From the NCBI GenBank assembly GCA_030147845.1, contig JASBUN010000051.1, positions 33,146 to 97,145 of the forward strand: a stretch of 64,000 nt of DNA, read 5' to 3'. Each line of letters starts with the position of its first letter. The first letter of the stretch is position 1. The notes under the pieces were generated by a model. That model had not been told where the DNA came from. It did not search any database and saw nothing but the letters and a program-made list of their open reading frames with translations. Below are positions 2,514 to 49,636 of this stretch, piece by piece. This stretch comes from Gammaproteobacteria bacterium (lineage in GTDB: Bacteria > Pseudomonadota > Gammaproteobacteria > JASBUN01). Position numbers and translations under genes: made by a program.

Positions 2514-3773
2514 TTAGAACTGCACTCGCACGGTGCCGGAAATCATGTTGTAGTCGTAACTGGCGGTGTTTACGTTAGAATCGCGGATACCGCGTTCATA
2601 AGCGACTTCGAGGCGTGTATTACGCCACGGCATGTAACCGGCGCTCACTGTCGCGGCGCGCACATGATCACGCCGGAGGCTCGTGCCCGCAACCGACAAC
2701 CCGGGGTCGCCGAGGAATTTCCAACGCTCGTCGGTCAAGTTGAGTTGCAGTACGGTACGATAAGTTACCGCCCATGAAGCACCGGCGCTGACGCCGTCGG
2801 TCAATATATAGTTGGCGGCGACATAGGTGTAGGAACGTATTTCGCGGTAGCCGGACAAATGAAAGATAGTGCTCGCCAGCGGCGTCCATTTGTATTCTAA
2901 GTTATAGGTGCCGCCGCCGAAGTCACGCGCCGACACGTCATTGTGGACGCGACGGGTATAGCCTGCACGCCCTTCCACCAAGGACGCGGCCGTGACCGCC
3001 CAATGCACGGTACCGCTGACTTCATATTCGCGATAGCGGTTGTCGATCAATAGGCTGCGTACGACTTCCCGATTGGGGTAACTACCGTCGCTGACCTTCG
3101 CTTCGATACCCGCGGTATTATCCGCCGGTGTCACATACAGCAAGTCGGCGGTCCCAGTCGCGACACGATTGTCCAAAGTCGAACGTGAATCGGCGCTGTG
3201 AGTGTAGTGGTAGTAGTCGACCGCCCCTTGAACCTTCCAACGCGGATGGATCATACGCGCCGCGCTGGCGAAGGCGTGGTTCTCATCGATCAAGTCTTGT
3301 ACGCGGTCTTGCAGAGTGGCAAAACTGGATAGGTAGCGCCGATTTTGGTAGCCGACTTTGCCATTCCAGAGATTGCCTGCTTGCCAGTTCCAGGTTAGCG
3401 TGGCGTCGTGGCCGACGTAGTCGAGAAAGCCGAAACGCTGGAATTTGTGTTGAATGGCAGTGACATCGACGATCACATGTTGGCGACTGATCGGGATGTC
3501 GCCGCGCACGCGGGCGCCGGCACTGTATATGGTATCGGATCGTTCGGACGTACCCAGCACTGAGCGCGTGTCGGTGCTATCCGACAGGCGGAACAGATTG
3601 CTGTCATGAGTCACGTCGCCGATCGCATAAATATGCCACAAGTGGCCGTCCGGCGGCTCGGCCGGATAGGCCGGGAAACTGCCGTCGGCCGGCCATCGCA
3701 ATGGCTCGGCGGCGTGGGCTGAAAATGCAAGCGGTGCAAAAGCCGCTAGCAGGGGAAGTAGCATTTTGCGCAT
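2514..3773 (-). CDS. Outer-membrane beta-barrel protein of unassigned family.
   Basis: Signal peptide MRKMLLPLLAAFAPLAFSAHA. Alternating amphipathic beta-strand pattern throughout. C-terminal ...TVRVQF with terminal Phe, as in outer-membrane barrels. About 419 aa. Confidence 0.6.
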   Translation of the reverse strand: MRKMLLPLLAAFAPLAFSAHAAEPLRWPADGSFPAYPAEPPDGHLWHIYAIGDVTHDSNLFRLSDSTDTRSVLGTSERSDTIYSAGARVRGDIPISRQHVIVDVTAIQHKFQRFGFLDYVGHDATLTWNWQAGNLWNGKVGYQNRRYLSSFATLQDRVQDLIDENHAFASAARMIHPRWKVQGAVDYYHYTHSADSRSTLDNRVATGTADLLYVTPADNTAGIEAKVSDGSYPNREVVRSLLIDNRYREYEVSGTVHWAVTAASLVEGRAGYTRRVHNDVSARDFGGGTYNLEYKWTPLASTIFHLSGYREIRSYTYVAANYILTDGVSAGASWAVTYRTVLQLNLTDERWKFLGDPGLSVAGTSLRRDHVRAATVSAGYMPWRNTRLEVAYERGIRDSNVNTASYDYNMISGTVRVQF

Positions 3774-4069: not shown

Positions 4070-5437
4070 TTAAGTGCCGCTGTTACCCCGGAATAGTTCT
4101 GGATCGAGATGGTGGCGGTTGAGTAATTTATAAAATTCCGTCCGATTCCGCTGCGCCAAGCGCGCCGCTTGGGTGACATTGCCTTCCGTCATTTGCAGTA
4201 GACGCACCAGGTAGTCGCGCTCAAACCGATCGCGGGCCTCCGCGAACGACAGCAGATCGCCAGGCTTGTCGCGCAACGCCTTTTGCACTTGGGCTGCGGG
4301 AATTAACGAGCCGGTGGCGAGAATGAAGGTTTGTTCGACGACATTCAGCAACTGCCGGACATTTCCCGGCCACGGGGCGGCGACCAATTGTTCCATCGCT
4401 TCGGGAGCAAAAGCTTTTTGGCTTTGCTTATTGCGTGCCGCCAGTTCACGTAAGAAATGCGCTGCCAATAGCGGTATATCTTCCCGCCGCTCGCGCAACG
4501 GCGGGAGTTCAAGCAATACCACATTGAGGCGATAGTATAGATCTTCGCGAAATGCGCCTTCGGTAATGGCGTGCTCGAGATCGCGGTGAGTGGCGGAGAT
4601 TACGCGCACGTTTACCGCTTCTGTATGCGTCGCGCCTACCGGGCGGACCTCCTTTTCCTGCAGCGAACGTAGCAGCTTGGCTTGAAACGCCAGCGGCATG
4701 TCGCCTATTTCGTCAAGAAACAATGTGCCGCCGTCAGCAGCGACGAAAAGCCCTTTATGGTTGCCGGTTGCGCCGGTGAATGAGCCTTTGACGTGGCCAA
4801 ACAACTCCGACTCGAGCAGTTGCTCGGGAATGGCGCTACAATTCACCGCGATGAAAGGCTCGTCGCTGCGTTGACTGGCGCGATGTATGGCTCTCGCCAA
4901 CAGTTCTTTGCCGGTGCCGCTCTCGCTTTGGATCAATATGCTGGTGTCGCTTTCCGCTACCCGGCGGGCGCGGCCGAGAAGCTCTTCCATTGCCGCACTT
5001 CGGCTTACGATGCCTTGGCGCCACTCCGTGCCATCCCCGGTATTGCCATTGTTCGCTCCCGACGCGTGAATCTGCAGGGCGCGCTGAATGCTGTTGAGCA
5101 GTTCCTTGCTATCGAATGGTTTGGTCAGATAGCCGAACACACCGCGCTGAGTGGCCGCTACGGCATCAGGTATGGTGCCATGTGCGGTAAGGATGATTAC
5201 CGGGATCATCGGATTGCGCTCGTGGATCGCTTCGAACAGCGCGAGGCCGTCCATGCCGTCCATGCGCAGGTCGCTGACCACCACGTCCGGTTGTAAACCC
5301 GCGAACTTACCGAGTGCGGCTTCGCCGCTCGATGCGGTGCTGACTTGATAGCCGGCCGCCGTCAATCGCATAGACAACAGTCGTAACAGGCCGGCATCGT
5401 CATCCACCAATAGGATATTCTCTTTTGTTTCGCTCAT
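4070..5437 (-). CDS. glrR: Sigma-54-dependent two-component response regulator, GlrR/QseF-like.
   Basis: REC domain with LLVDDD...D. AAA+ sigma-54 activator core with the GAFTGA-type loop (GSFTGA) and ESELFGH. C-terminal HTH ...GNVTQAARLAQRNRTEFYKLLNRHHL is close to E. coli GlrR. ATG confirmed at 5437. Confidence 0.85.
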   Translation of the reverse strand: MSETKENILLVDDDAGLLRLLSMRLTAAGYQVSTASSGEAALGKFAGLQPDVVVSDLRMDGMDGLALFEAIHERNPMIPVIILTAHGTIPDAVAATQRGVFGYLTKPFDSKELLNSIQRALQIHASGANNGNTGDGTEWRQGIVSRSAAMEELLGRARRVAESDTSILIQSESGTGKELLARAIHRASQRSDEPFIAVNCSAIPEQLLESELFGHVKGSFTGATGNHKGLFVAADGGTLFLDEIGDMPLAFQAKLLRSLQEKEVRPVGATHTEAVNVRVISATHRDLEHAITEGAFREDLYYRLNVVLLELPPLRERREDIPLLAAHFLRELAARNKQSQKAFAPEAMEQLVAAPWPGNVRQLLNVVEQTFILATGSLIPAAQVQKALRDKPGDLLSFAEARDRFERDYLVRLLQMTEGNVTQAARLAQRNRTEFYKLLNRHHLDPELFRGNSGT

Positions 5438-8353: not shown

Positions 8354-9334
8354 TTATTTGCGCACGGTGTTGTGCGCCAGGCAAGAACGATCTCGGCCCA
8401 GCCGTTTGGCGCGATAGAGGGCCGAGTCGGCGCGTGCGATCAGCGTGTCCGCGGTTTCATCGGCACACCATTCGGCTACGCCGATGGACGCGGTAACGCC
8501 GGGCAGCGGTTCGCCGTGGCGGCCATTGATGCTTTGCTGCCTGATCGCGGTCAAAACACGCTCGGCCACCTGGGTGGCTTCGATTAGGGTTGCGTCAGGC
8601 AGCAGTACAGCGATTTCCTCGCCGCCGTAACGCGCGGCGTGGTCGCCTGGACGCATATGCGCGCGCACTGTTTGCGAGAATGTGCTCAACGCCAAGTCAC
8701 CGGCCAGATGGCCATGGGTATCGTTGTATTGCTTGAAATAGTCGATGTCGATCATCAATAGCGACAAGTGTGCCTCACGGTGCTGACAATGTTGAATCAA
8801 CACGCGTAAGGATTGATCGAACCAGTGCCGGTTGTAGAGACCGGTTAGCGCGTCGACCCATGCTTGTGTCTCCAGTTCATCGCGTTCAACCAGACTGCGA
8901 CCGAGTAGCAAGTTGTCCTTGCGCAGACGTCGGCAGACCATGCGCAGCAGGTTTAGCGTCACGCAACGCGAATGCGACAACACCGTACGTAGCGTCGCGC
9001 CATCGACCAGCAGCAGGCGGCTGCGCACCACGGTAGTGACGTAGGCGGACGGCGGCAGTGCTTCAATGACGGACATCTCGCCGACGCAGTGACCACGCCC
9101 TAGGCGCGCGATAACGCGTTCGCCTTTAGCGTCGAGTTGCACTTGCACTTCGCCGTCTAATACGACATACATTTGGTCTTCGAAACGTTCCGGCGCGAGC
9201 AGTAGTTGGCCGGCTGGGAACTCTTCGATGCGGCAAAGAGGTGGTAACCAGGACAGTTCAGGGGGGGCTTCGCCCTGAAACAGCGGCAATTCAATCAATT
9301 CTTCAGCGGTGATACTGGCATCGACTTTGGTCAT
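8354..9334 (-). CDS. Cyclic-nucleotide-binding (cNMP) domain fused to a GGDEF diguanylate cyclase; the signature reads GGEEI.
   Basis: N-terminal cNMP-binding fold (FQGEAPPELSWL...GEMSVIE). C-terminal GGDEF domain (LTGLYNRHWFD...RYGGEEIAVLL). Start at ATG 9334; the track ORF starts at 9382. Confidence 0.8.
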   Translation of the reverse strand: MTKVDASITAEELIELPLFQGEAPPELSWLPPLCRIEEFPAGQLLLAPERFEDQMYVVLDGEVQVQLDAKGERVIARLGRGHCVGEMSVIEALPPSAYVTTVVRSRLLLVDGATLRTVLSHSRCVTLNLLRMVCRRLRKDNLLLGRSLVERDELETQAWVDALTGLYNRHWFDQSLRVLIQHCQHREAHLSLLMIDIDYFKQYNDTHGHLAGDLALSTFSQTVRAHMRPGDHAARYGGEEIAVLLPDATLIEATQVAERVLTAIRQQSINGRHGEPLPGVTASIGVAEWCADETADTLIARADSALYRAKRLGRDRSCLAHNTVRK

Positions 9335-9757
9335 TGTAAGTATTCGCTTGGCCTGCCGTATCGGCACACAGGCACGAAGCAAAGACCGTACCAGCGCTTA
9401 TGTGAAGCGATGCTGAAATGACGCAAGTGTTGATGCGATGGTTATTTTTTTACGGAAATTAGGCCGATTGAGGCAGCAAATCAGCAGTACGTGAGACGCT
9501 GCTATGTGGATTTCGTGTCGCGTGATGACGACGCTGGAGGGAATACGCGGTAAACATGGATGCCGGACCTATCCACCATCAAGCGGCCCTCGATGCCGGC
9601 CCGAAATCGCCAAACATGATTCTTGTTGCCGCGGTAATGACGATGCCGAAAATCGGTTTGAGGCTTGTCCACGCTGTTTGATCCGGGCGTCAACCGGACA
9701 AGCGCGACCGTCGAAACCGGCGGATTGCCGGTTTACGTGCACTATTTCAACTGCTTT

Positions 9758-10872: not shown

Positions 10873-11730
10873 TCAAGCCAGTTCGGATTTAACCAAAGCG
10901 GCGCCGGGCGAACGCCGTCGTGCGCTGTCGCGCAACCACATACGTAGCACCACCACGGCGGCGATGACGCTCATCATACTGGTTGGGATCCAGGTGATCA
11001 GGCCGCCGATTTCCTGATCGACCAATGGGCTGATCGGCCACGCGCGTCCGCAAACGTTGTAGACGTCGTAGACGATCGAGTGATGCAGCGCAATATAGGC
11101 GCCGAGCACGATTTGCGGCATCGTGATAGCCCACAACAGTAAAATACGCCAACCGAAACCCAGGCCACCGCGCTCACGCGCATTGGGATTTACGATCAGC
11201 CACCAGAACAGCAGACCGTCGAGTAGCATGCTCCAATTCATGACCTGATAACGCGTCAGGCTCAGCATCGCTTTGAAGTGAATTTCGGGCATCAACCAGA
11301 AATAGATTAAGCCGACGAACAGGCCGGCGGCGACGATCGGGTGTTGCAGGAAACGGTAGGCGGCCTGTACCACGCGGCTGCGCCATACGGGAACCAGCAG
11401 GCGATGCGCGAAGTGCGGCAAACCGCGCGCCATGGCCGCTTGTGGTGCAGCCAACATGAGCAGGAACGGCCCGGTATGGTGTAACACCAGATGCTGGGCG
11501 CGGTGAACCCAAAACATATGCTGTGAGTAGTAATCGATACGAGTCTGCATGACTACGTATATGGCAATCAAACCGACGAAGAACGACAACCATCGCCAAA
11601 TGCCGGGGCGCGCCTCGTCCGGCCCCATCGCCAGTGAGCCGCGCACGAATAACACCGCCGACAGTAGGCAAACCGCCAATACTGTCGGCGAGAAATCGTA
11701 CGGCGTCATAAACGCAATGAATGTGGACAT
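10873..11730 (-). CDS. Cytochrome c oxidase assembly factor CtaG (caa3-type CtaG, PF09678), a polytopic membrane protein.
   Basis: About 7 transmembrane helices with multiple conserved His and Trp residues. Lies directly upstream of PCuAC-SCO1 on the same strand, forming a copper-delivery operon. Alternative start at 11760. Confidence 0.65.
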   Translation of the reverse strand: MSTFIAFMTPYDFSPTVLAVCLLSAVLFVRGSLAMGPDEARPGIWRWLSFFVGLIAIYVVMQTRIDYYSQHMFWVHRAQHLVLHHTGPFLLMLAAPQAAMARGLPHFAHRLLVPVWRSRVVQAAYRFLQHPIVAAGLFVGLIYFWLMPEIHFKAMLSLTRYQVMNWSMLLDGLLFWWLIVNPNARERGGLGFGWRILLLWAITMPQIVLGAYIALHHSIVYDVYNVCGRAWPISPLVDQEIGGLITWIPTSMMSVIAAVVVLRMWLRDSARRRSPGAALVKSELA

Positions 11731-11953
11731 CGGTGGTCCGAAACGGTGCGCGAGTCGCAACCGGCGTCAAGCAGCGCGCCGGGTGCTTTCCGGCGCAGAT
11801 GGTAGCAGAGCGTAGCGACCGCGTACACCCGGAGTCCGTCTCGCAACCCGCAAAAAAGCGTGCAAACGGCGTTCTTGAGTATGTATGCAGCCATGCTGGG
11901 TGCGCCGTTTCCGCGTCCGTGGCAGAATCTCCGCTCGACGCCGAAGGCGGTCC

Positions 11954-14900
11954 ATGAATGTGGTGCCCATGTCTAATCATTTTATCCATATAAAAGGTGC
12001 CAGGCAGAACAACCTCAAAGGCTTTGATTTACGGCTGCCGCTGCACGAGCTGATTGTCATCACCGGCGTCAGCGGTTCGGGGAAATCCTCGCTGGCTTTC
12101 GATACCGTATATGCGGAGGGACAGCGCCGCTACGTCGAGACCTTCTCGCCATATGCGCGTCAATTTCTCGATCGCATGGATAAGCCGAAAGTCGAGCGCG
12201 TCGACGGCATACCGCCGTCCATTGCGATTGATCAGACTAACCCGGTGCGTACCTCGCGCTCCACGGTCGGCACCATGACCGAGCTCAACGATCATCTGAA
12301 ATTGCTGTTTGCACGCGCCGCGCGATTGTATTGTCGCGACTGCGCGCAGCCGGTGACGCGCGACGATGCCAATAGTATTTTCGAACAGTTGCTTGGGCTT
12401 GCCGCAAACGCCGACGCCGCAATGGTGATGGTGACGTTTCCAATCACGGTACCGGAAAATTTTTCTGAACGAGAGGTGCGCGAGCTATTGGCGCGTCAGG
12501 GTTACGGGCGCGTACATCGCCGGCACGGAAGTCGACTGGATGTCGTACAGGATCGGGTGCGCGCTTCGGCAGCGCAGCGTGATCGCCTGGTCGAGGCGTT
12601 AGAAGCTGCGCTCAAATATGGCCAGGGCTACGTCAGTGTCTATCCCCTCGACGCCGATCGCAAAGCGGGGAAGCCGTGGCATTTTTCCGCTGCTCTACAC
12701 TGCGCCGAATGCGATATCGATTATGCCGAACCGACGCCGAATTTGTTTTCGTTCAACTCGCCGGTCGGCGCCTGCCCGACTTGCCGCGGATTCGGGCGCA
12801 CCATGGGCATCGATTACGACTTGGTCGTACCCGATGGTTCCAGGACTTTGGCCGGCGGCGCCATCAAGCCGTGGCAGACCGACAGCTATATCGAGTGTCA
12901 GCGTGATCTAACGCGCTTTGCGCGCCTACGTGGTGTTCCGCTCGAGGTGCCGTGGAACAAGCTCTCCAAAGCGCATCAACAATGGGTTTTGGAAGGCGAG
13001 GGCGAGTGGGACGATGGTAAATGGTACGGCGTGCGACGTTTCTTCGCTTGGCTTGAAACCAAAAGCTACAAAATGCACATTCGCGTGTTGCTGTCCAAGT
13101 ACCGCGCGTACGATGCCTGCCCTGATTGCGGCGGCGCGCGCTTGAAGACCGCTGCGCTGTTGTGGCGCGTTGGCGACGAGCACAATGCCGCGCGAGTTTT
13201 ACCCGTGGAACAGCGCTTTTCGCCGGCCGGTATCGGTTGTGCGAGCGCGCGCTTTCGCGCGCTTCCAGGGTTGACTCTGCATGATGTAATGCAACTTCCC
13301 ATCGAGCGCTGTCGCGAATTCTTTGAACATATCCATCTGCCGACACCCATGGACCAGGCGGCCGACGTATTACTCGGTGAAATTCGCGCACGACTTCGTT
13401 ATCTCGGCCAGGTAGGGCTGGACTATCTAAGTTTGGATCGGCAATCGCGTACGTTGAGCGGTGGCGAAGTGCAGCGCATCAATTTGACTACCGCGCTGGG
13501 AACTTCGCTGGTCAATACGCTGTTTGTGCTCGATGAGCCGAGCGTCGGCTTGCATCCGCGCGATATGCAGCGGGTGGTGAGCATATTGCATCAACTGCGC
13601 GATGCCGGAAATTCGCTGTTGGTGGTAGAGCACGACCCGCAAGTCATGTTGGCCGCCGACCGCGTGTTGGACTTGGGACCCGGGCCGGGCGAGCAAGGCG
13701 GTGAAGTGGTTTTTTTCGGCACGCCAAAACAGCTGCTGCGCTCTCGCCGATCGTTGACAGCCGATTACTTGGCAGGCCGCACGACGGTCGGCGGCGATGC
13801 TGGAAGGCGCGCTGAGCTACCGTCTTCGGCGCACGATTCAATACAAATTGTTGGGGCGGCTGAAAATAATCTCAAAGTCATCGACGTGTCGATTCCTTTG
13901 CATCAGTTGGTGTGCATTACCGGCGTTAGCGGTTCGGGCAAGTCGACCCTGATCCAGGACGTGTTGTATAAGGCGCTGCGCAAACTCAAGGGCCGGCCGG
14001 TGGAGCCCGCCGGCGCGCATCGCGCCATCCGCGGCCATGAGAGAATCGACGACGTAGTGCTGGTGGACCAGTCGCCAATAGGCAAAACGACGCGCTCCAA
14101 CCCGGCTAGCTACGTCGGTGCGCTCGACGCTATTCGCAAACTATTTGCCGCGCAACCGTTGGCGCGTGCGCGCGGCTATAGCGCCGGTACATTCAGCTTT
14201 AATTCCGGTACCGGGCGTTGTCCGACCTGCGGTGGGAACGGATTCGAACACGTTGAAATGCAGTTCTTGAGCGATGTCTATATTCGCTGCCCGGACTGCG
14301 ACGGCACGCGCTATCGTCCTGAAGTACTTGAGGTCAAACTACTGCCGTCCGCGGGCGGGATGGCGGCGCCGGTTTCGATTGCCGGCGTCCTAGAGATGAC
14401 TGTATCGGAGGCGGTGACGTGGTTCGCCGATCATGCCGAGATAATACGCGTTCTGGGACCGCTGCAGGCCGTAGGGCTGAGCTACCTGCGCTTGGGTCAG
14501 CCGGTGCCGACGCTGAGCGGTGGTGAGGCGCAACGGCTGAAGCTGGCGGGTCATCTCGCGCGCGCGCGCGGCGCCAAGTCCGACGGCACCACGTTGTTCA
14601 TTTTTGATGAGCCCACTACCGGCTTGCATTTCGACGATATTGCCCGTTTGTTGCGAGCCTTTGATGCATTGCTCGAACAGGGGCATTCGTTGGTGGTCAT
14701 CGAGCATAATCTGGACGTAATCGGGGCCGCCGATTGGATCGTTGATCTGGGGCCAGAGGGCGGCGATGCCGGCGGCAGCGTGGTATATGTTGGTACGCCC
14801 GCGGCGTTGACGCGCACTGGCGTTAGTCATACCGGCGTCGCGTTACGCCAATATCAGCGCGCACGCGGGCTTGCGGCATCGGCGGCTCAGGTGGTCGATG

Positions 14901-17575
14901 ACGGTAAGCCGGCATCGACATCGAGCACGCCCAGAGCCGGCACTGCAATCCGCATACGCAATGCTCGTGAGCATAATCTGCGCGGCATCGATGTTGATAT
15001 CCCACTGGACAAATTTACGGTTATTACCGGTGTCAGCGGCAGCGGCAAGAGTACGCTGGCGTTCGATATTCTGTTCGGTGAGGGGCAGCGGCGTTATCTG
15101 GAATCGCTCAACGCCTACGCGCGTCAGTTCGTACAGCCTTCGGCGCGTCCCGATGTCGACGCGATCACGGGAATACCGCCGACGGTGGCTATCGAGCAGC
15201 GTACCAGCCGCGGCGGCCGCAAGAGTACCGTGGCGACCTTGACCGAGATTTACCACTTTTTGCGGCTCCTGTTCGTCAAGCTCGGAACCCAATACTGTCC
15301 GGACTGCGATATACCGATCGAGGCACAGAGTGCGGAGACCATCCTAGCGCGCATCCTGCAGCAGTTTCGTGGCCGACAGGTCACGTTGTTTGCGCCTCTG
15401 GTGGTGGCGCGTAAGGGCTACTACACCGAGCTCGCGCAGTGGGCGGCCGGCAAAGGCTATGCGCAACTACGCGTCGATGGGGTGATGACGCCGACCGGGC
15501 AGTGGCCACGCCTGGAGCGTTTTCGTGAGCACAGTATCGATTTGCCGGTTGCCAGCATGGTGATATCGGCCAAGACCGAAGCGGAGTTGCGCGCTGTGCT
15601 CGCGCATGCCTTGGAGTTAGGTAAAGGCGTAGTTGAGGTACAGGCCTTGCAAAAGCGTCCGCGCGCCGCCGCTGCAAGCAACGCCGGTTGCGCCGTATTC
15701 TCGGTTCATCGCGCCTGCCCCGGTTGTGGACGCAGCTTCAAGGAGCTTGATCCGCGTCTGTTCTCATACAACTCCAAGCACGGTTGGTGCGAGCACTGCT
15801 ACGGCACCGGACTGCTGTTGACTGGATTCGATGCCGAGCAAAGCGGTGAGGAGATTCAATGGAACCAGTGGTGGGAAGGTGAAGCACGCACTTGTCCGAG
15901 CTGTGACGGTCATCGTCTGCGTGCCGAGGCATTGGCGGTGCGCGTTGACGGTCACTCCATCGGCGAGTATACGCGCTTGACGGTGCAACAGGCCGGAAGC
16001 GCGTTCGGTGCGTTGCGGCTACGCGGGCGCGCGGGTGAAATAGGGCGCGATATCATTCCTGAACTGCGTTCACGATTGTCCTTCTTGGTCGAAGTAGGGT
16101 TGGGGTATTTGTCGCTGGATCGTTCCGCGCCTACCTTGAGCGGTGGTGAGGCGCAGCGCATCCGTTTGGCCGCGCAACTGGGTTCCAATCTACGCGGCGT
16201 GTGTTACGTCCTTGATGAACCCACCATCGGTCTGCATCCGCGTGACAATCGCATGTTGCTGGCGACGCTCGGCAAACTAGCCGCTAAAGGCAACACCATT
16301 GTCGTTGTCGAGCACGACGAAGATACAATCCGCCGAGCCGAGCATGTCATCGACTTGGGACCCGGGGCCGGGGTCGATGGTGGTCGCCTGGTCGCTACCG
16401 GGACGCTCAAATCGATTATGGCGGCGCCGGATTCGGTAACCGGCCGGTTTTTGTCTATGCCGCTGGGTCATCCTCTGCAGCGGCAACGGCCAGTGGCCAC
16501 CAAGCAACCGGCCTTACGAATCGTCGGTGCTGATTTGCACAATTTACGGCGCCTAAGCGCACGCTTTCCGCTGCAACGATTGCTGTGCGTTACCGGGGTC
16601 AGTGGCAGCGGCAAGAGTACGCTGGTACGGCAGGTGTTGCGTGAAAATTTGCAGCGCTTATTGTCCCGCGGCAAACGTCGTAAGGCGGCGTCGGTACCGT
16701 TAGTCGGTTGCCGCGAATTACGTGGTTGGGAGATGATCGACCGCGTATTGGAGGTCGATCAGACGCCGATCGGCAAGACGCCGCGCTCGTGCCCGGCAAC
16801 CTATGTCGGTTTTTGGGACCAGGTGCGGCGTTTGTACGCCGACACCACTGAGGCGCGTATACGGGCTTTCGGTCCAAGCCGATTCTCGTTCAATGTCAAA
16901 GGCGGCCGTTGTCCGGCGTGCGACGGTCAAGGTGTAAAGCGCATTGAGATGAGTTTTCTTCCCGATGTGATCGTGCCTTGCGAGGTGTGTGCCGGCGCGC
17001 GTTTTACGCCGGACACCTTGTTGGTGAAGTACAAAGAGCGCTCCATCGCTGATGTCCTGGCAATGAGCGTAAATGAGGCGACCGATTTTTTTTCCGCGCA
17101 TGCCAAAATTCATCATGCCTTACAACTGCTGCAGGATGTCGGACTGGGCTACCTGCGCCTAGGTCAGCCAAGCCCGACCCTCAGTGGCGGCGAGGCACAG
17201 CGCATTAAACTGGTTACCGAATTGGCCAAGGCGCAACCGATACGCGGCGTCGGGCCGATTGGCAAGCATACCTTATATATATTGGACGAGCCGACCATCG
17301 GCTTGCATATGGCCGATGTCGAAAAGTTAGTGCGCGTTCTGCATCGCTTGGTGGATGCAGGCAATACCGTGCTGGTTATCGAGCATAATCTGGACGTCGT
17401 TGCCGAGGCCGATTGGTTAATCGACTTGGGACCTGAAGGCGGTGACGGCGGCGGCCGCATCGTCGTCCAGGGCGCGCCGCAATCGGTCGCACAGAAACGA
17501 CGCTCGGCGTCACATACGGCATCCGCGCTGGCTCAATTTCTGCGTCAACGCCGTTGCCCTAAAGGCGGTAAGTGA
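11954..17575 (+). CDS. Tandem-duplicated UvrA-like ABC ATPase (about 1870 aa). It consists of two complete UvrA units, giving four nucleotide-binding modules, and looks like a single-chain UvrA dimer.
   Basis: Unit 1 (aa ~30-980) contains ARQNNLKGF, Walker [15 protein letters not shown], Zn modules (CRDC...[18 protein letters not shown]), signature LSGGE twice, and Walker B/D-loops. Unit 2 (aa ~1000-1890) repeats the whole architecture ([48 protein letters not shown] twice, [14 protein letters not shown]). Both units retain a UvrB-binding-domain-like insert (QGYGRVH.../[10 protein letters not shown]...). Start is the ATG at 11954 (AAGGCGG upstream); alternative ATG at 11969. Confidence 0.85.
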
Positions 17576-41610: not shown

Positions 41611-43710
41611 TTACCGATGCAGGCCGCCGGTGGCCGGCAGCAGTGCGTCCAATTCCGTTGACGGTAGCAACTGACCGCGATGGGGCCGCGCGCGACCGCC
41701 GCGCTGCACTAACTCGCTACGCAGCGCGAGCAGGGTGACATTGTCGGGGTCGATGTGCAGCCCGCGTTCGAGGTAGCGCGCCGCGCGTGACAGGTGTCCA
41801 CGGTCCGCGGCTTGTCGCGCCAAAACCGCATACAGACGCAAGATTTCGTGTATACCGCGGGTGGCTTCGGGGTTGTTCGGAGCGAGTGCCAGCGAGCGCC
41901 GATAGTAGCTGTAGGCGCTGTCTTGCGCGGGTACGGTGAAGTGGTAATTCGTCATTGCCATACGCGCGCGCGCCAGCAACGTGGGTACCTGTGCTGCCGG
42001 ATTGTCGGCGCTGCCAGTGTCGGCGGTAGGCGGTGCTGCGGGCCGGCCGTCTGCAGTGGAAGGAGAGTTTGCGCTGTCGGCGCTGGGATCGACATGCGCC
42101 GCCGGCGGCGGCGCCTGCGGGCCAGGCTGCGGTTGCGGAACTGGTGTCTGGGGCGACTGTGCCTGGGACGACGGCAAGGGGGTTATGGCAACGCTCTTGG
42201 ACGCCGGTTTCGGCGCCATCGACGCGGATGCTACGGCGTTGTTGACGTCGTTGTTGACGGTCGCGCCGTTTGGTTGCGGCGACGATACGCCTTGCGCCGC
42301 CGGCCCGGACGGTACGACCACGCGCATGGGTGAAGCTTGCGGTGTGCGGCCTGCTAGCTGCTCGACGGCAATGTGCTTAGCTGTGGCAGCCGACGTCGAC
42401 GGCCGCAATTGCGGCAGCCACCATTGATAGCCGGCGGTTAGCAGCGCCGCCGCCGCGGCGGTTCCAAGCACGGCCAGGAAGCCTTGCCGAAAGCGCCGGT
42501 TGCGTAAATCGCCATCACGTACCGCGGCGTGCAGTTCGCTTAGCGCCGGTTTGTCTTCGTCCCTGAGCGCACTTTCGTCCTGTTTCAATGATGCCGGTCT
42601 AAGATGAAACAGCGCATCGGTGTCTCGATCCGCCGGTGTGTCGGACGGTTCTACGTCCGACACACCGGTAGCAGCGGGTGGAGGGCTGCTTGTTACGTCG
42701 GCATGCGCATCGCCCGGCGCACCAGGTTGAACTGCGTCAAAAATCGCGCTAGCGGATGACCGGGATAACTCGTCGCCGATTTCGGCCGCCCGGACATCGG
42801 ACGGTTGTCGGTGTAGCTCGTCGGCCTCCGCCTGCGCGTCGCGCGCGGTACCCGGCTGCAATGCGCCGTCGTCGTTAAATTCGGTAGGCCAAGTATCCAG
42901 GCGTTCCTGGCGTAACTCTTCGACCACCGAACGGACGTCGGTGCTGGTGAGATGGTGGCGTTGCTCGGCCCAACCATGCACGAGCAGACGTCCACACAAC
43001 ACGTTGATACGCCGCGGTACGCCTTCGCTGAACCGATACAGGTCACGCATGACGGAGTCATCGAGTTGCGGATCGTCCCGCCAGCCGACGCGCTGTAGTC
43101 GATGCAAAATATAGTCACGCGTTTCATCGGCGCTCAGCGCGGTGAGTTCGCACACGGTGGAGCAGCGGGCACGCAATTCGGCCGCGGACTCACTTGCCAG
43201 TAGATCGGAGAGCGATTCCTGGCCGACCAATAGCACCTGCAGTAGTAGGCGTCGGTGATTTCGCAGTGACGTCAGCCGCTCCAACTCCTGCACACCACTG
43301 GCGGTAAGATTCTGCGCTTCATCAACGATCAATAGTGGCCGGCGGCCGGCGCCCAGGTGCCGGCCGAGATACTCGCTCAGGTGCTGTAGCAGACTATCCT
43401 CGTTGTTATCGCTAAAGCGTAAGCCAAACGCATGTGCGCTCATGCGGCGCAGGTCGATGGCGTCCAGTTGCGAACTGACCAGGCGCGCGCACATAAACCC
43501 GCCGGGCTGCAGCTCATTGACCAGCGATTGGATCAGCGTGGTCTTGCCGCTACCCGCGCGGCCGGTGACCACGACAAGGCTTTCGGCATCGGCGAGTGCA
43601 TTGCGTAGTTGCTCGCGTACGCGGGTGTAACCGCGATGGCTGAAACTGAAACGGGCATCTGGCGCCAACCGGAACGGATCGGCGCTGAGGTGATAAAAAT
43701 CTTCGTACAT
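41611..43710 (-). CDS. ExeA/GspA/MshM-like AAA ATPase (COG3267) with a long low-complexity linker, a transmembrane segment and a C-terminal TPR domain.
   Basis: N-terminus FYHLSADPF...F..S..H...REQL......ESLVVVTGRAGSGKTTL with Walker A. Walker B LLIVDEAQNL. Hydrophobic segment LAVLGTAAAAALLTAGY. TPR-like C-terminus (AYSYYRRSLALAPNNPEA...). Confidence 0.7.
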   Translation of the reverse strand: MYEDFYHLSADPFRLAPDARFSFSHRGYTRVREQLRNALADAESLVVVTGRAGSGKTTLIQSLVNELQPGGFMCARLVSSQLDAIDLRRMSAHAFGLRFSDNNEDSLLQHLSEYLGRHLGAGRRPLLIVDEAQNLTASGVQELERLTSLRNHRRLLLQVLLVGQESLSDLLASESAAELRARCSTVCELTALSADETRDYILHRLQRVGWRDDPQLDDSVMRDLYRFSEGVPRRINVLCGRLLVHGWAEQRHHLTSTDVRSVVEELRQERLDTWPTEFNDDGALQPGTARDAQAEADELHRQPSDVRAAEIGDELSRSSASAIFDAVQPGAPGDAHADVTSSPPPAATGVSDVEPSDTPADRDTDALFHLRPASLKQDESALRDEDKPALSELHAAVRDGDLRNRRFRQGFLAVLGTAAAAALLTAGYQWWLPQLRPSTSAATAKHIAVEQLAGRTPQASPMRVVVPSGPAAQGVSSPQPNGATVNNDVNNAVASASMAPKPASKSVAITPLPSSQAQSPQTPVPQPQPGPQAPPPAAHVDPSADSANSPSTADGRPAAPPTADTGSADNPAAQVPTLLARARMAMTNYHFTVPAQDSAYSYYRRSLALAPNNPEATRGIHEILRLYAVLARQAADRGHLSRAARYLERGLHIDPDNVTLLALRSELVQRGGRARPHRGQLLPSTELDALLPATGGLHR

Positions 43711-46198: not shown

Positions 46199-47950
46199 AT
46201 GACCGTTTTAGCCGAGCAGATTGCGCGCACCATTTTGGCCGGATTCGAGAAGCACTTTGCCTTTCATCAAGAAGTCACGAGCGGTGCTCGCGAACGTTTC
46301 GAGCGCATGGATTGGGCCGGAATACAGCGTACCTCAGCCGAACGCATTCATCTTTATGATCGTCGCGTCACCGAGACCATCGATAAAGTCCGCGGTGTAT
46401 TCGAGCTTTCCGCGCTTGACGAATATTTGTGGCGCGACGTAAAGGCCGATTACGTGGCTCGTTTGCGTCACCACTGCCGACCGGAGTTGGCCGAAACATT
46501 TTACAATTCCGTTTTCTGTCGCTTGTTTGATCGGCGATATTTCAACAACAAGAACATTTTCGTCGAATCGGTGGCCGATCGCGACAAGCTAGTCGATCGG
46601 TACCGGGTTTTTATGTCCTTTCATCCCGGCGACGCTGGTTTGCGGGACAGCATTCGGGATATGCTGTCGTCGTTTTATTTTTCCATCCCGTTCGAAGATA
46701 TCGATCGGGATGTCGGTTATATCGAGCGGCATTTCCTGAAAAATTCGCCGCTGCGCAATGCGCCCTTGGATGAAATGCGTATCGATGTGCTGGAAACGCC
46801 GTTTTTTCGCAACAAGGGCGCTTATTTGATCGGTCGTGTGACACGCGGTGAACACTGCTATCCGTTCGTCGTACCGCTAATGAATGACGGCGCCGGCCTA
46901 TACGCCGACGCTTTATTGACCACGCGTGACCAGATCGGGTTGGTGTTTAGTTTTTCGCGCGCATATTTCATGGCGCAGATGCCTGTCCCGGTCGCCACTA
47001 TCGCGTTTCTTCAGACGCTGCTGCCGGGCAAGCCGTTGGCGGAGTTATATATGAGCGTCGGTTTCCATAAACAAGCCAAAAACGAGTTTTATCGCGATTT
47101 TTTACATCATCTGGCGCGTACCAAGGACAAGTTCGTCATCGCGCCCGGCGCGCGTGGCATGGTTATGTGTGTGTTTACCTTGCCGTCCTATCCATACGTA
47201 TTCAAGATTATGAAGGATCGCTTCGATCCGCCGAAGGATGTTACGCACGAACAGGTGGCGAACCGCTATCTTCTGGTCAAACAGCACGACCGTGTCGGCC
47301 GCATGGCCGATACACTGGAGTTTTCTGATGCGGCATTTCCACTGCAGCGTTTCTCGCAAGAATTGTTGGCCGAGTTGCGCGCGGTTGCCGCGGCCTCACT
47401 AGAGGTCGATGGCGAGATGCTATTCATTCGTCACCTGTACATCGAGCGTCGCATGCGACCGCTGGACCTTTTCCTTGAACATGCGTCGCCCGGCGAGGCG
47501 CGTAGCGCGATTGCGGACTGGGGTCTGGCGGTAAAGGAATTGATGGCGGTCAATATCTTTCCGGGCGATCTGCTGTTCAAGAATTTCGGTGTCACGCGCC
47601 AGGGTCGGGTGGTGTTCTACGACTACGACGAAATATCATACCTGACCGACTGCAGTTTCCGCAGGATTCCGCCGCCGCGTTATCCAGAAGACGAACTGGC
47701 TGCTGAGCCGGCTTTCAATGTGGGTCCTCACGATGTGTTCCCGGAAGAATTTTTGACCTTCATTGCGACCAATGCGCAGCGGCGTCAAACGCTGCTCGAC
47801 ACCCATCCCGAGTTGCTGGACTATCGCTATTGGCAACAACGGCAGAAAGACGTTGTTGCCGGCGTATATGCCAATATCTTCCCCTATCCGCGAGAGGCCC
47901 GCTTTCCGCATCGCCGGTCGCCTTCGAGCGCAAAACCAACGCCGCCTTAG
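46199..47950 (+). CDS. aceK: Isocitrate dehydrogenase kinase/phosphatase AceK.
   Basis: Colinear with E. coli AceK: MVMCVFTLPS, FKIMKDRF.P.K, HDRVGRMADT.EF, RHLYIERRM.PL, IFPGD.LFKNFGVTR.GRVVFYDYDEI.Y, PPPRYPEDELA.EP. ATG at 46199 with AGGTGA upstream. Confidence 0.9.
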   Translation: MTVLAEQIARTILAGFEKHFAFHQEVTSGARERFERMDWAGIQRTSAERIHLYDRRVTETIDKVRGVFELSALDEYLWRDVKADYVARLRHHCRPELAETFYNSVFCRLFDRRYFNNKNIFVESVADRDKLVDRYRVFMSFHPGDAGLRDSIRDMLSSFYFSIPFEDIDRDVGYIERHFLKNSPLRNAPLDEMRIDVLETPFFRNKGAYLIGRVTRGEHCYPFVVPLMNDGAGLYADALLTTRDQIGLVFSFSRAYFMAQMPVPVATIAFLQTLLPGKPLAELYMSVGFHKQAKNEFYRDFLHHLARTKDKFVIAPGARGMVMCVFTLPSYPYVFKIMKDRFDPPKDVTHEQVANRYLLVKQHDRVGRMADTLEFSDAAFPLQRFSQELLAELRAVAAASLEVDGEMLFIRHLYIERRMRPLDLFLEHASPGEARSAIADWGLAVKELMAVNIFPGDLLFKNFGVTRQGRVVFYDYDEISYLTDCSFRRIPPPRYPEDELAAEPAFNVGPHDVFPEEFLTFIATNAQRRQTLLDTHPELLDYRYWQQRQKDVVAGVYANIFPYPREARFPHRRSPSSAKPTPP

Positions 47951-47986: not shown

Positions 47987-49351
47987 CTAGCGCGTCAACC
48001 AGGATTTGGCTCGTGCCGTCACCAGCGCATAGGGAAAAATCCAAAACAGCGTGAAAAACGAATAGTAGGCGTAGAACACGCCGTAGACGACATCCCAGGA
48101 ACGTTCGCTACGCAGGTAATAGAGCATGGTCAGCATCGACATGGCGCCGATGACGAACAGCAGACGTACGATGGTGAGCGGGTCGTGCATCGACGCATAC
48201 AAAAGCAACGCCATGGCAGCGTAGGCGGCCGGGTAGCGTAGGTTGGTGACGACGGTGTCGATGACCGCGATCAGTCGTGGCACCGCCGGTCGTTTCCAGA
48301 CGATTCCGGCAAAGCGAATTTCTTCGCGCACGTAGCTGCGGTCCCAACGCAGGTACATTTTACACAGCTTTTTATAGGTATTTGGCACGATCGTGTGCAC
48401 TACTGCGGTGCGTTGGTAAACGGTGTCATAGCCACGCGCGAGAATGAAGTTGGTCATCGAGCGATCTTCGCCATAGGTGCAGGCTGCGCCCAAAAAGGTC
48501 TGATTTATCCATGGCTCCAACACTTCCCGAACGACGCTGGTGCGATAAGCGGCCAGTGCGCCGGGACAGCAATAGACCGTACCATAGGTAGACTGTACCG
48601 CGCGTAGGAAGTCGAAGGCGAGGGTGAAGCGTACCCGCAGCATACGCGGTATAAGACCTTGGTGGCAGTTGTAGACTGCCACGCGACCGGCTACGGCGCC
48701 AATACGCGGATTGCGAAATGGCCCGACCACGGCCAACAGAGTGCCGTGATCGATGATGCTATCGGAGTCGATTGTGACTACCACGTCACCACGCGCGCGA
48801 CGGAAACCCGCTGCGAGTGCCGCGCGCTTGCCGCGATTGCGCTCGAAGCGAACCGCCGTAACCAAGTCAGGGTGGCGCCGTGCCGCGCGGTCGATGTAGG
48901 TCCAGGTGTCGTCCATGCTGCCGTCGTCGACCACCAATATTTCAAGGCGCCCGCGCGGATAGTGCGCCGCGGCGACAGAGTCGATCGACTTCTCGACCAT
49001 GAAGCCTTCATTAAAGGCCGGGATGATCACCGTTAACATGGGGGCATCATCGTCTTCGGCCGCTGCGAACGGGTGATAACGGAACCAAAGCGCGGTGCGC
49101 AAGGTCAACATCAGCGTCCCCATGACCGCCCATATGATGCTCGGGCGCGCCAATGTTTGCGTCCACGGTTGGGTGTCAAAGTGGCGATATAGTGGCTGAA
49201 ACACATGCCCTGCGACGGTCAGGTAGATCAGCAGCAATAGCGCCACGGTGATAGCTGCACGCAGTAGGTGTTCCCAGACGTCCGCTCGTAGCGGCGTCAG
49301 AGAACCGCCGCCCGCGCTGTGTGGACGCATATCGGGATTTTGCGAAGACAT
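47987..49351 (-). CDS. Membrane-embedded family 2 glycosyltransferase (processive synthase-like, NodC/HAS/PgaC-type).
   Basis: N-terminal transmembrane helices. GT-A core with VVDDGS, TIDSDS, GEDRSMT and YLRWDRS (a variant of the QxxRW motif). C-terminal transmembrane helices. ATG at 49351. Confidence 0.8.
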   Translation of the reverse strand: MSSQNPDMRPHSAGGGSLTPLRADVWEHLLRAAITVALLLLIYLTVAGHVFQPLYRHFDTQPWTQTLARPSIIWAVMGTLMLTLRTALWFRYHPFAAAEDDDAPMLTVIIPAFNEGFMVEKSIDSVAAAHYPRGRLEILVVDDGSMDDTWTYIDRAARRHPDLVTAVRFERNRGKRAALAAGFRRARGDVVVTIDSDSIIDHGTLLAVVGPFRNPRIGAVAGRVAVYNCHQGLIPRMLRVRFTLAFDFLRAVQSTYGTVYCCPGALAAYRTSVVREVLEPWINQTFLGAACTYGEDRSMTNFILARGYDTVYQRTAVVHTIVPNTYKKLCKMYLRWDRSYVREEIRFAGIVWKRPAVPRLIAVIDTVVTNLRYPAAYAAMALLLYASMHDPLTIVRLLFVIGAMSMLTMLYYLRSERSWDVVYGVFYAYYSFFTLFWIFPYALVTARAKSWLTR

Positions 49352-49636
49352 TAGGACGGTACCGGGATGAGGGAGGGTGGCGCAAATCCGCGCGAGGCTG
49401 AATGTCACCGCAGCGACTGCTACCTAGCCGATCACCGCGTAAGTAATCGTGGCCTACTCGCGGCGTTGGCGAGAGCAAGCATACCGTGTTCGCCCGTCAC
49501 AGTATATCGGCGTTGGTACAGACGAGAAAGTGAGTTATTGGGGTGACTATACCCGTAAATTTAAACTAGTATTGAAGAGCGGTCACTACGAACTAAACGA
49601 TATCCGCGACCGTCTCAAGTCACACTGGAGCTGCCT

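Follow-up and report, generated by a model that had tools for sequence, protein, structure and literature searches.

A double-length UvrA with two non-identical units in an uncultured gammaproteobacterium

According to recent structural work, it is still unclear how the pre-incision complex, which is asymmetric and contains one UvrB, arises from a symmetric UvrA2UvrB2 complex (PMC11985968). Since the canonical UvrA dimer is a symmetric homodimer, it is difficult to mutate one protomer alone. With a UvrA whose two units are naturally joined in one chain, each of the four ATPase sites could be altered separately, and it could be asked whether one or two UvrB molecules are used and what the insertion domain contributes. 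A candidate for such a protein was encoded in the 64,000-nt stretch of gammaproteobacterial DNA analysed here (assembly GCA_030147845.1, contig JASBUN010000051.1; hereafter the window). Canonical class I UvrA consists of two identical chains of about 940 amino acids (aa) each, whereas the tandem uvrA gene of the window encoded one chain of 1873 aa with two UvrA units. The original prediction, made from the letters alone, described these units as two complete copies fused into a covalent dimer. Thus, the locus raised the question of whether the two units are equivalent and what such a chain may do in the cell. We found that the gene was a genuine, conserved double-length UvrA and that its two units were not identical. 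Namely, they differed in the accessory domains and in the residues that contact UvrB and DNA.

The gene encodes two UvrA units in one chain

The open reading frame (ORF) was unbroken on the + strand (11885..17575), so the description of a single uninterrupted in-frame gene was correct. The coding sequence within it was as follows:

11954..17575, + strand: complete tandem UvrA coding sequence, 1873 aa plus stop (ORF, profile scores, homologue alignment)

The likely start was ATG 11954, preceded by a Shine-Dalgarno-like GAAGG 7 nt upstream, or alternatively the in-frame ATG 11969, which lay five residues downstream and corresponded to the start used by most homologues in the family alignment. 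The mechanical ORF added 23 codons 5' of ATG 11954 (11885-11953, + strand) and there overlapped a divergent ORF (11174-11989, - strand). The homologues gave no support to this 23-codon extension.

The whole protein scored above the cutoffs of two NCBIfam models, namely the equivalog NF001503 (2033 bits, cutoff 1147) and TIGR00630 (1986 bits, cutoff 729.8). Single halves were both under the NF001503 cutoff (949 and 1066 bits) and both over the TIGR00630 cutoff (943 and 1032 bits). The exact protein had no record in an exact-protein look-up. On the other hand, at least 120 full-length homologues were found in the protein database (1823-2021 aa, 66-95% identity, 99-100% coverage). They came from Gammaproteobacteria, Nitrospirota/Manganitrophus and Desulfuromonas, and all those with a named source were called UvrA. 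Identity was about 70% for the closest named relatives and 95% for an unnamed protein from Logan.

Both halves were aligned with E. coli UvrA (taken from NC_000913.3) and, using phmmer, with solved UvrA chains including that of B. stearothermophilus. This gave the following layout:

11954..14845, + strand: unit 1, aa 1-964 (alignment to E. coli UvrA, AlphaFold2 (AF2) model)
14846..14947, + strand: inter-unit linker, aa 965-998, about 34 residues (family alignment)
14948..17572, + strand: unit 2, aa 999-1873, with both nucleotide-binding domains, zinc modules Zn1-3 and a full-length UvrB-binding-like domain, without insertion domain (alignment, AF2 model)
12065..12091, + strand: Walker A motif of ATPase site 1 (GVSGSGKSS), aa 38 (motif scan)
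13922-13948, 15029-15055 and 16595-16621, + strand: Walker A motifs of the other three sites, aa 657, 1026 and 1548
13454-13468, 14513-14527, 16136-16150 and 17180-17194, + strand: LSGGE signatures, aa 501, 854, 1395 and 1743
13178..13276, + strand: insert specific to the family, about 30 aa long, located after Zn2 in signature domain I of unit 1, aa 409-441 (alignment)

In the alignment, the units were 42% identical to one another and 44-50% identical to E. coli UvrA. Walker B and the H-loop were found at all four ATPase sites by alignment and motif scan, and twelve CxxC pairs made up six zinc modules, three per half, at the expected positions. The Walker A, Walker B, signature and H-loop residues as well as all zinc cysteines were invariant in both halves of 42 aligned homologues. 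Thus, the four ABC ATPase modules and three zinc modules per half that had been predicted were all found, and neither half lacked ATPase motifs, which had been named as a result that would overturn the prediction. Judged from these motifs, every ATPase site and every zinc module of the chain was intact.

The two halves were equally conserved in the 121-sequence family, where the mean frequency of the top residue was 0.785 and 0.779. The linker was the least conserved part (0.30 vs 0.78 for the units), ranged from 22 to 58 aa in the homologues and was rich in A, R, P, G and S. This variability in both sequence and length fits a flexible tether. The insert of unit 1 after Zn2 was present neither in E. 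coli UvrA nor in unit 2 and had a predicted local distance difference test score (pLDDT) above 90 in the AF2 model.

AF2 models were built for each half separately. The model of unit 1 had a mean pLDDT of 84.3 and a predicted template modelling score (pTM) of 0.79, and its best Foldseek match was B. stearothermophilus UvrA (2R6F, template modelling score (TM) 0.82/0.88). For unit 2, the mean pLDDT was 82.4 and the pTM 0.77, and the top TM-score was obtained with M. tuberculosis UvrA (3ZQJ, TMq 0.84). Accordingly, each half was predicted to have the UvrA fold, with solved class I UvrA structures as the best matches.

The two units are asymmetric

It has previously been reported that residues 131-248 of E. 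coli UvrA form the UvrB/Mfd-binding domain, with R216 and E222 at the UvrB interaction surface, and that residues 290-400 form the insertion domain, deletion of which impairs damage discrimination (Manelyte et al. 2010, PMC3025350). The DNA-binding residues are R712, R722, R724 and R730 (PMC3025350). The numbering used here recovered all the residues of Manelyte et al. in the E. coli UvrA sequence. The corresponding features of the tandem protein were the following:

12323..12721, + strand: UvrB-binding domain of unit 1 with the flanking Zn1 (C127/C130, C250/C253), Pfam UvrA_inter 30.6 bits
12584..12604, + strand: unit 1 codons R211 to E217, equivalent to E. coli R216 and E222, UvrB/Mfd contact surface (alignment)
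12785..13117, + strand: insertion domain of unit 1 (Pfam UvrA_DNA-bind, PF17755, 50.4 bits), flanked by Zn2 (C274/C277, C389/C392)
15287..15736, + strand: UvrB-binding-like domain of unit 2 with Zn1 (C1115/C1118, C1255/C1258), Pfam UvrA_inter 91.8 bits
15809..15889, + strand: conserved stub of about 25 aa (aa 1286-1312) in place of the unit 2 insertion domain (alignment, Pfam, block hidden Markov models (HMMs))

The earlier statement that both halves keep a region resembling the UvrB-binding domain was true for its length. A block-HMM survey found an insert of 122-139 aa between conserved blocks, together with Zn1, in both halves. However, the two regions were not alike. The domain of unit 1 was about 13 aa shorter than its E. 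coli counterpart and matched UvrA_inter over profile positions 66-107 only, the C-terminal third. The domain of unit 2 was full length and spanned the whole profile, for which E. coli UvrA scored 134.4 bits. At the level of contact residues the situation was the opposite. In unit 1, R211 and E217 lay on helix 206-222 of the AF2 model, and conservation of each among the 121 sequences of the family was 95% or higher. In unit 2, the positions of E. coli D205, R206, R216 and E222 were occupied by A, S, E1211 and A1217, which were not conserved in the family. The R216/E222 correspondence of both halves was reproduced in the phmmer alignments to B. stearothermophilus UvrA, and in the AF2 models these positions sat on the equivalent helix of each half.

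The insertion domain was present in one half only. Unit 2 lacked the domain of about 110 aa that corresponds to E. coli residues 290-400, and its stub lay between the Zn2 CxxC pairs C1279/C1282 and C1314/C1317. Pfam UvrA_DNA-bind matched unit 1 only. The DNA-binding arginines showed the reverse pattern in the alignment to E. coli, where all four were retained in unit 2 and unit 1 had T in place of R730. Thus, the claim of two complete units could be kept for two units of UvrA fold but not for their accessory domains. Likewise, aligning the halves separately confirmed that both were UvrA and revealed unequal accessory domains and contact residues that had been missed in the original prediction.

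The same sites were then counted across the clade to which the protein belonged, using 56 unit 1 and 52 unit 2 sequences:

E. coli D205: kept in 50 of 56 unit 1 and 0 of 52 unit 2 sequences
E. coli R206: kept in 53 of 56 unit 1 and 7 of 52 unit 2 sequences
E. coli R216: kept in 49 of 56 unit 1 and 7 of 52 unit 2 sequences
E. coli E222: kept in 36 of 56 unit 1 and 9 of 52 unit 2 sequences

R730 was lost across unit 1 of the clade and retained in 33 of the 52 unit 2 sequences. By these counts, the asymmetry of the units was systematic across a clade of about 52 representative clusters. The halves held complementary subsets of the canonical features, namely the UvrB dock and the insertion domain in unit 1 and the full set of DNA-binding arginines in unit 2. 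As far as the searched literature shows, such asymmetry has not been described in a tandem UvrA. The picture of a covalently fused single-chain dimer therefore needed to be modified. The two units of UvrA fold, the variable tether and the existing annotation of relatives as a dimeric form were in its favour, but the dimer could not be called symmetric because the halves have diverged in complementary ways.

Distribution and relation to known UvrA types

The tandem gene was a member of an already known, widespread and routinely annotated family of double-length UvrA proteins of the dimeric form or uvrA2 type. Its likeness to the double-length UvrA of Proteobacteria (Rmet_4549, 'uvrA_2', 'dimeric form') extended collinearly over 99-100% of the length at 57-69% identity. 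Compared directly with the double-length proteins of Cupriavidus, Ralstonia and Burkholderia, it was 58-59% identical over 99-100% of the query, with matching unit order. The 120 closest homologues shared its unit order, the missing insertion domain of unit 2 and the variable linker. With respect to the protein, sequence divergence was the only difference from the uvrA2 type of Cupriavidus and Ralstonia. The genomic setting differed, since the window gene was in a chromosomal-looking region while the Ralstonia copies were on megaplasmids and the copy of C. metallidurans CH34 was on CHR2. In CH34, uvrA2 (Rmet_4549) on CHR2 has been reported as a paralogue of a CHR1 gene (PMC2864759). The single UvrA-like locus that we found on CHR2 was a 5.8-kb tandem gene.

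A genome scan, limited to loci recognised by motif and to one representative genome per species, found at least 599 tandem-uvrA loci. They spanned Gammaproteobacteria, Burkholderiales, Nitrospirota, Thermodesulfobacteriota, Verrucomicrobiia and Spirochaetaceae and included Bordetella, Achromobacter, Cupriavidus (chromosome 2), Rubrivivax, Aromatoleum, Steroidobacteraceae and Ectothiorhodospiraceae. Among the best 80 of these at least 599 motif-matched loci, none was more than 69% identical to the window gene. In PLSDB, 224 plasmid or chromid records covered at least 80% of the query. These were mostly Ralstonia solanacearum megaplasmids, with C. metallidurans CH34 CHR2, Burkholderia and Mycetohabitans among the others. 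The labels of the PLSDB matches included 'uvrA', 'uvrA_2' and 'Excinuclease ABC subunit A, dimeric form', and members of the family were also annotated as 'excinuclease ABC subunit UvrA'. Thus, a double-length UvrA is an ordinary finding in such a window, since proteins of this type are numerous, are annotated as a matter of routine and have been named a dimeric form before, and the earlier view that the gene was unusual did not hold in the face of the homologues, loci and records listed above. The remark that such proteins are rarely characterised was fair, as a functional study was not found in the literature searched.

A search with unit 1 among 1.84 billion representatives clustered at 50% identity gave 9604 matches (E <= 1e-30), and the best 150 representatives were for the most part 1500-2340 aa long. 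These 150 (P0121-P0270) were the sample of the block-HMM survey, in which the spacing between conserved blocks was used to score the UvrB-binding domain (U) and the insertion domain (I) of each unit. The main architectures were as follows:

UI/UI, two full class-I-like units: 39 of 150 representatives
UI/U- or UI/Ui, the type of the window protein, where i is a reduced insertion domain: 42 of 150
-I/-I, two class-II-like units, about 1600-1650 aa: 19 of 150
UI/-I, class I plus class II: 5 of 150

Rarer tandem UvrA architectures were also seen, as well as a few forms of 2166-2343 aa. We placed 233 units in a neighbour-joining (NJ) tree, which was crude and contained a single canonical reference (E. 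coli UvrA) and no verified Chlamydia sequence. The window protein fell in a clade of 52 tandem representatives whose first units formed one group and whose second units formed another. E. coli UvrA clustered with other tandem families, in which the two units were sister clades. This pattern suggests one old fusion for the window clade, with halves that are old and differentiated, and several younger independent fusions in other tandem families, where the duplications were seemingly younger. Since the tree was crude and had one canonical reference, this fusion history should be read as indicative. In the sampled sequences both units always shared one chain. A stand-alone protein resembling unit 1 (P0144), the only one checked, was considered as a possible pre-fusion ancestor and rejected, because it was a fragment at a contig end.

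With respect to the known classes of UvrA, each unit resembled the canonical class I proteins (E. coli, B. stearothermophilus 2R6F, M. tuberculosis 3ZQJ) in its fold (TM 0.82-0.84), its two ABC ATPase sites and its three zinc modules. Unit 1 also had the two accessory domains of these proteins as well as residues equivalent to R216 and E222. However, class I proteins have the insertion domain in every protomer, which here was true of unit 1 and not of unit 2 with its stub. Other departures from canonical UvrA were the loss of the UvrB-contact residues in unit 2 and of R730 in unit 1. Class II proteins (UvrA2, DrrC, Ecm16) have been reported to have neither a UvrB-binding domain nor the first zinc module (PMC9328131). 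The window protein resembled them (Deinococcus UvrA2 2VF7, Ecm16 7SH1 and DrrC) as a paralogue of UvrA fold able to coexist with a housekeeping uvrA. It differed from them because they are single-length and lack both features, which the window protein had in both halves.

A fused UvrA has also been reported in Planctomycetes (Tuwongella immobilis), simply as the UvrA of the cell (PMC8567305). The fused proteins of Planctomycetes and Chlamydiae have two uvrA units per polypeptide and about twice the length of E. coli UvrA, as the window protein does. Membership in the Chlamydia type was tried with the 1809-aa equivalog model NF001885 and rejected, because the protein scored 1122 bits against a cutoff of 3054 and was therefore not an equivalog of that model. 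Five other representatives with a UvrB-binding plus insertion domain in the first unit and no insertion domain in the second were also under this cutoff. The term 'class III' was not found in use for UvrA in the literature searched. The works of Goosen & Moolenaar 2008 and Marszalkowska 2013 reportedly classified UvrA paralogues.

Proposed function and alternative explanations

We propose that the tandem protein is a single-chain asymmetric UvrA pseudo-dimer that serves as a damage sensor in nucleotide excision repair, has one canonical UvrB/Mfd dock and is probably an accessory paralogue. We give this reading a probability of roughly 0.6. The two units would fold back on each other into an intramolecular pseudo-heterodimer similar to the head-to-head UvrA dimer, and this pseudo-dimer would scan DNA and use ATP as canonical UvrA does. 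Since the canonical docking surface is present in unit 1 only, this unit would recruit one UvrB (or Mfd) per pseudo-dimer, and lesions would be passed to ordinary excision by UvrB and UvrC. The protein would work as an accessory damage sensor beside a canonical uvrA, as in Cupriavidus and Ralstonia, rather than as the sole UvrA. A role as an accessory paralogue, separate from the housekeeping uvrA, is made probable by analogy with Cupriavidus, which has uvrA on CHR1 and uvrA2 on CHR2, and with the uvrA_2 label in Ralstonia.

A number of observations weighed against this proposal. By overall Pfam score the UvrB-binding domain of unit 2 was the more canonical one (91.8 vs 30.6 bits), and unit 2 might still bind UvrB through other contacts, or the shortened domain of unit 1 might not bind it. 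The unit tree was a crude NJ tree with a single canonical reference, and the fused form of Planctomycetes was described as nothing other than the UvrA of the cell (PMC8567305). A conserved gene neighbourhood was not found, the best cluster being present in 10 of 80 related loci. Upstream of the tandem uvrA there was no LexA box (CTGT-N8-ACAG) and no other regulatory clue. Finally, the literature searched contained no experiment or functional study on any member of the tandem family, including uvrA2/Rmet_4549 and the 'dimeric form'.

The main competitor was that the gene encodes the sole housekeeping UvrA, as in Planctomycetes or the Chlamydia type, which would then perform all global and transcription-coupled excision repair. 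NCBIfam has an equivalog model for a UvrA of 1809 aa (NF001885), there was no second UvrA-like sequence in the 64-kb window, and an identity of about 68% across phyla indicated strong purifying selection. However, the window spans only 64 kb, the score against NF001885 spoke against the Chlamydia type, and the gene was not located beside ssb or another repair gene. Moreover, the Cupriavidus orthologue is explicitly a second copy on a secondary replicon and the Ralstonia copies are on megaplasmids, one of them labelled uvrA_2. We therefore regarded a sole UvrA as unlikely, although it deserves serious attention. The original prediction had also offered a DrrC-like drug-resistance factor. In this case, the protein would protect DNA independently of UvrB, like the class II proteins DrrC, Ecm16 and Deinococcus UvrA2, by displacing intercalators or adducts bound to DNA without excision. 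Such a mechanism has a precedent in Ecm16, which makes cells resistant to echinomycin by means of its ATPase alone, with no need for UvrB, UvrC or UvrD (PMC9328131). Tandems of two class-II-like units exist (the -I/-I architecture above), and a LysR regulator and an MFS transporter lay 0.5-3 kb downstream of the window gene. On the other hand, the class II hallmark, absence of the UvrB-binding domain and Zn1, was seen in neither half, the UvrB-contact residues of unit 1 were strongly conserved, and no biosynthetic cluster was found nearby. The LysR and MFS neighbours were not kept in the 80 related loci, in which no gene was consistently linked to the tandem uvrA. Since the UvrB-binding domain was retained and its contact residues were conserved, a UvrB-independent role was the less likely one, and we considered it improbable for this protein.

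The remaining alternatives concerned the chain itself. Units might pair between chains (1-1, 2-2 or swapped), so that each assembly would contain eight ATPase sites. The sequence is compatible with such pairing, and in some homologues the linker, at 22 aa, might not be long enough for folding back, depending on the distance between the termini in the UvrA dimer. However, complementary loss of features is what would be expected if units 1 and 2 always work as a pair, and in the sampled sequences they were always on one chain, P0144 being a contig-end fragment. This made pairing between chains a decidedly poor prospect. The original prediction had itself named an artefact, two adjacent uvrA genes joined by a sequencing or assembly error, as what could undo it. 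Prior suspicion of very long ORFs was the only point in favour of such an error. Hundreds of assemblies made independently, among them finished chromosomes and megaplasmids, had the same continuous architecture, the unit-specific features were conserved, and the linker was variable yet always in frame. Thus, the homologue, genome and plasmid searches led us to reject an artefact, the chance of which was negligible.

A stronger form of the proposed pseudo-dimer can also be put forward, tentatively and with more doubt than confidence. Here the sensor would be obligately asymmetric, with unit 1 as the only UvrB/Mfd dock and the only carrier of an insertion domain and unit 2 as the main DNA-binding surface. 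If so, exactly one UvrB would be loaded per molecule, and the side of the lesion on which it is placed would be defined. The protein would then be a natural, hard-wired UvrA2-UvrB1 intermediate and a ready tool for studying strand choice and hand-off in excision repair. A further question raised by the family is why many Proteobacteria keep such a large paralogue beside the housekeeping uvrA.

Genomic neighbourhood and other genes of the window

Upstream of the tandem uvrA were genes for a weakly CtaG-like membrane protein, a GGDEF protein and a histidine kinase, and the LysR regulator and MFS transporter mentioned above were its downstream neighbours. Promoter and terminator scans gave results at chance level. 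In a related metagenome-assembled genome (MAG; GCA_049611545.1, contig JBMZAO010000189.1, locus L083), a gene with a PycTM domain (694-1290, + strand; Pycsar-type effector domain, PF18967) was located directly 5' of a tandem uvrA truncated by the contig end. This adjacency was probably coincidental.

The lineage of the window could be judged from the following gene:

46199-47950, + strand: AceK, isocitrate dehydrogenase kinase/phosphatase (785 bits)

AceK was 97% identical to a Logan protein, 76% to a protein from a Gammaproteobacteria MAG and 63-65% to Thioalkalivibrio proteins. By this marker, the window came from an uncultured gammaproteobacterium near Thioalkalivibrio/Ectothiorhodospiraceae.

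Another fusion was encoded further downstream:

53392-55737, + strand: 781-aa fusion of a pyridine nucleotide-disulfide oxidoreductase (TIGR03169, 509 bits) and a SelD-like selenide, water dikinase (TIGR00476, 307 bits)

It scored under the cutoff of TIGR04369, 'oxidoreductase/SelD-related fusion' (483 vs 700).

Components of a PEP-CTERM/exosortase exopolysaccharide system were scattered in the window (2514-3773, 4070-5437 and 41611-43710, all on the - strand). The set consisted of EpsL (an outer-membrane protein associated with XrtB), a GlrR/PEP-CTERM-box-like sigma-54 response regulator and a protein of 699 aa that matched the XrtA/PEP-CTERM-associated ATPase at its N-terminus. The other genes noted, two of cyclic di-GMP signalling and one glycosyltransferase, were these:

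8354-9382, - strand: fusion of a cyclic nucleotide monophosphate-binding-like domain and GGDEF
49637-52303, + strand: 888-aa GGDEF-EAL protein
47987-49408, - strand: NodC/PgaC-like glycosyltransferase

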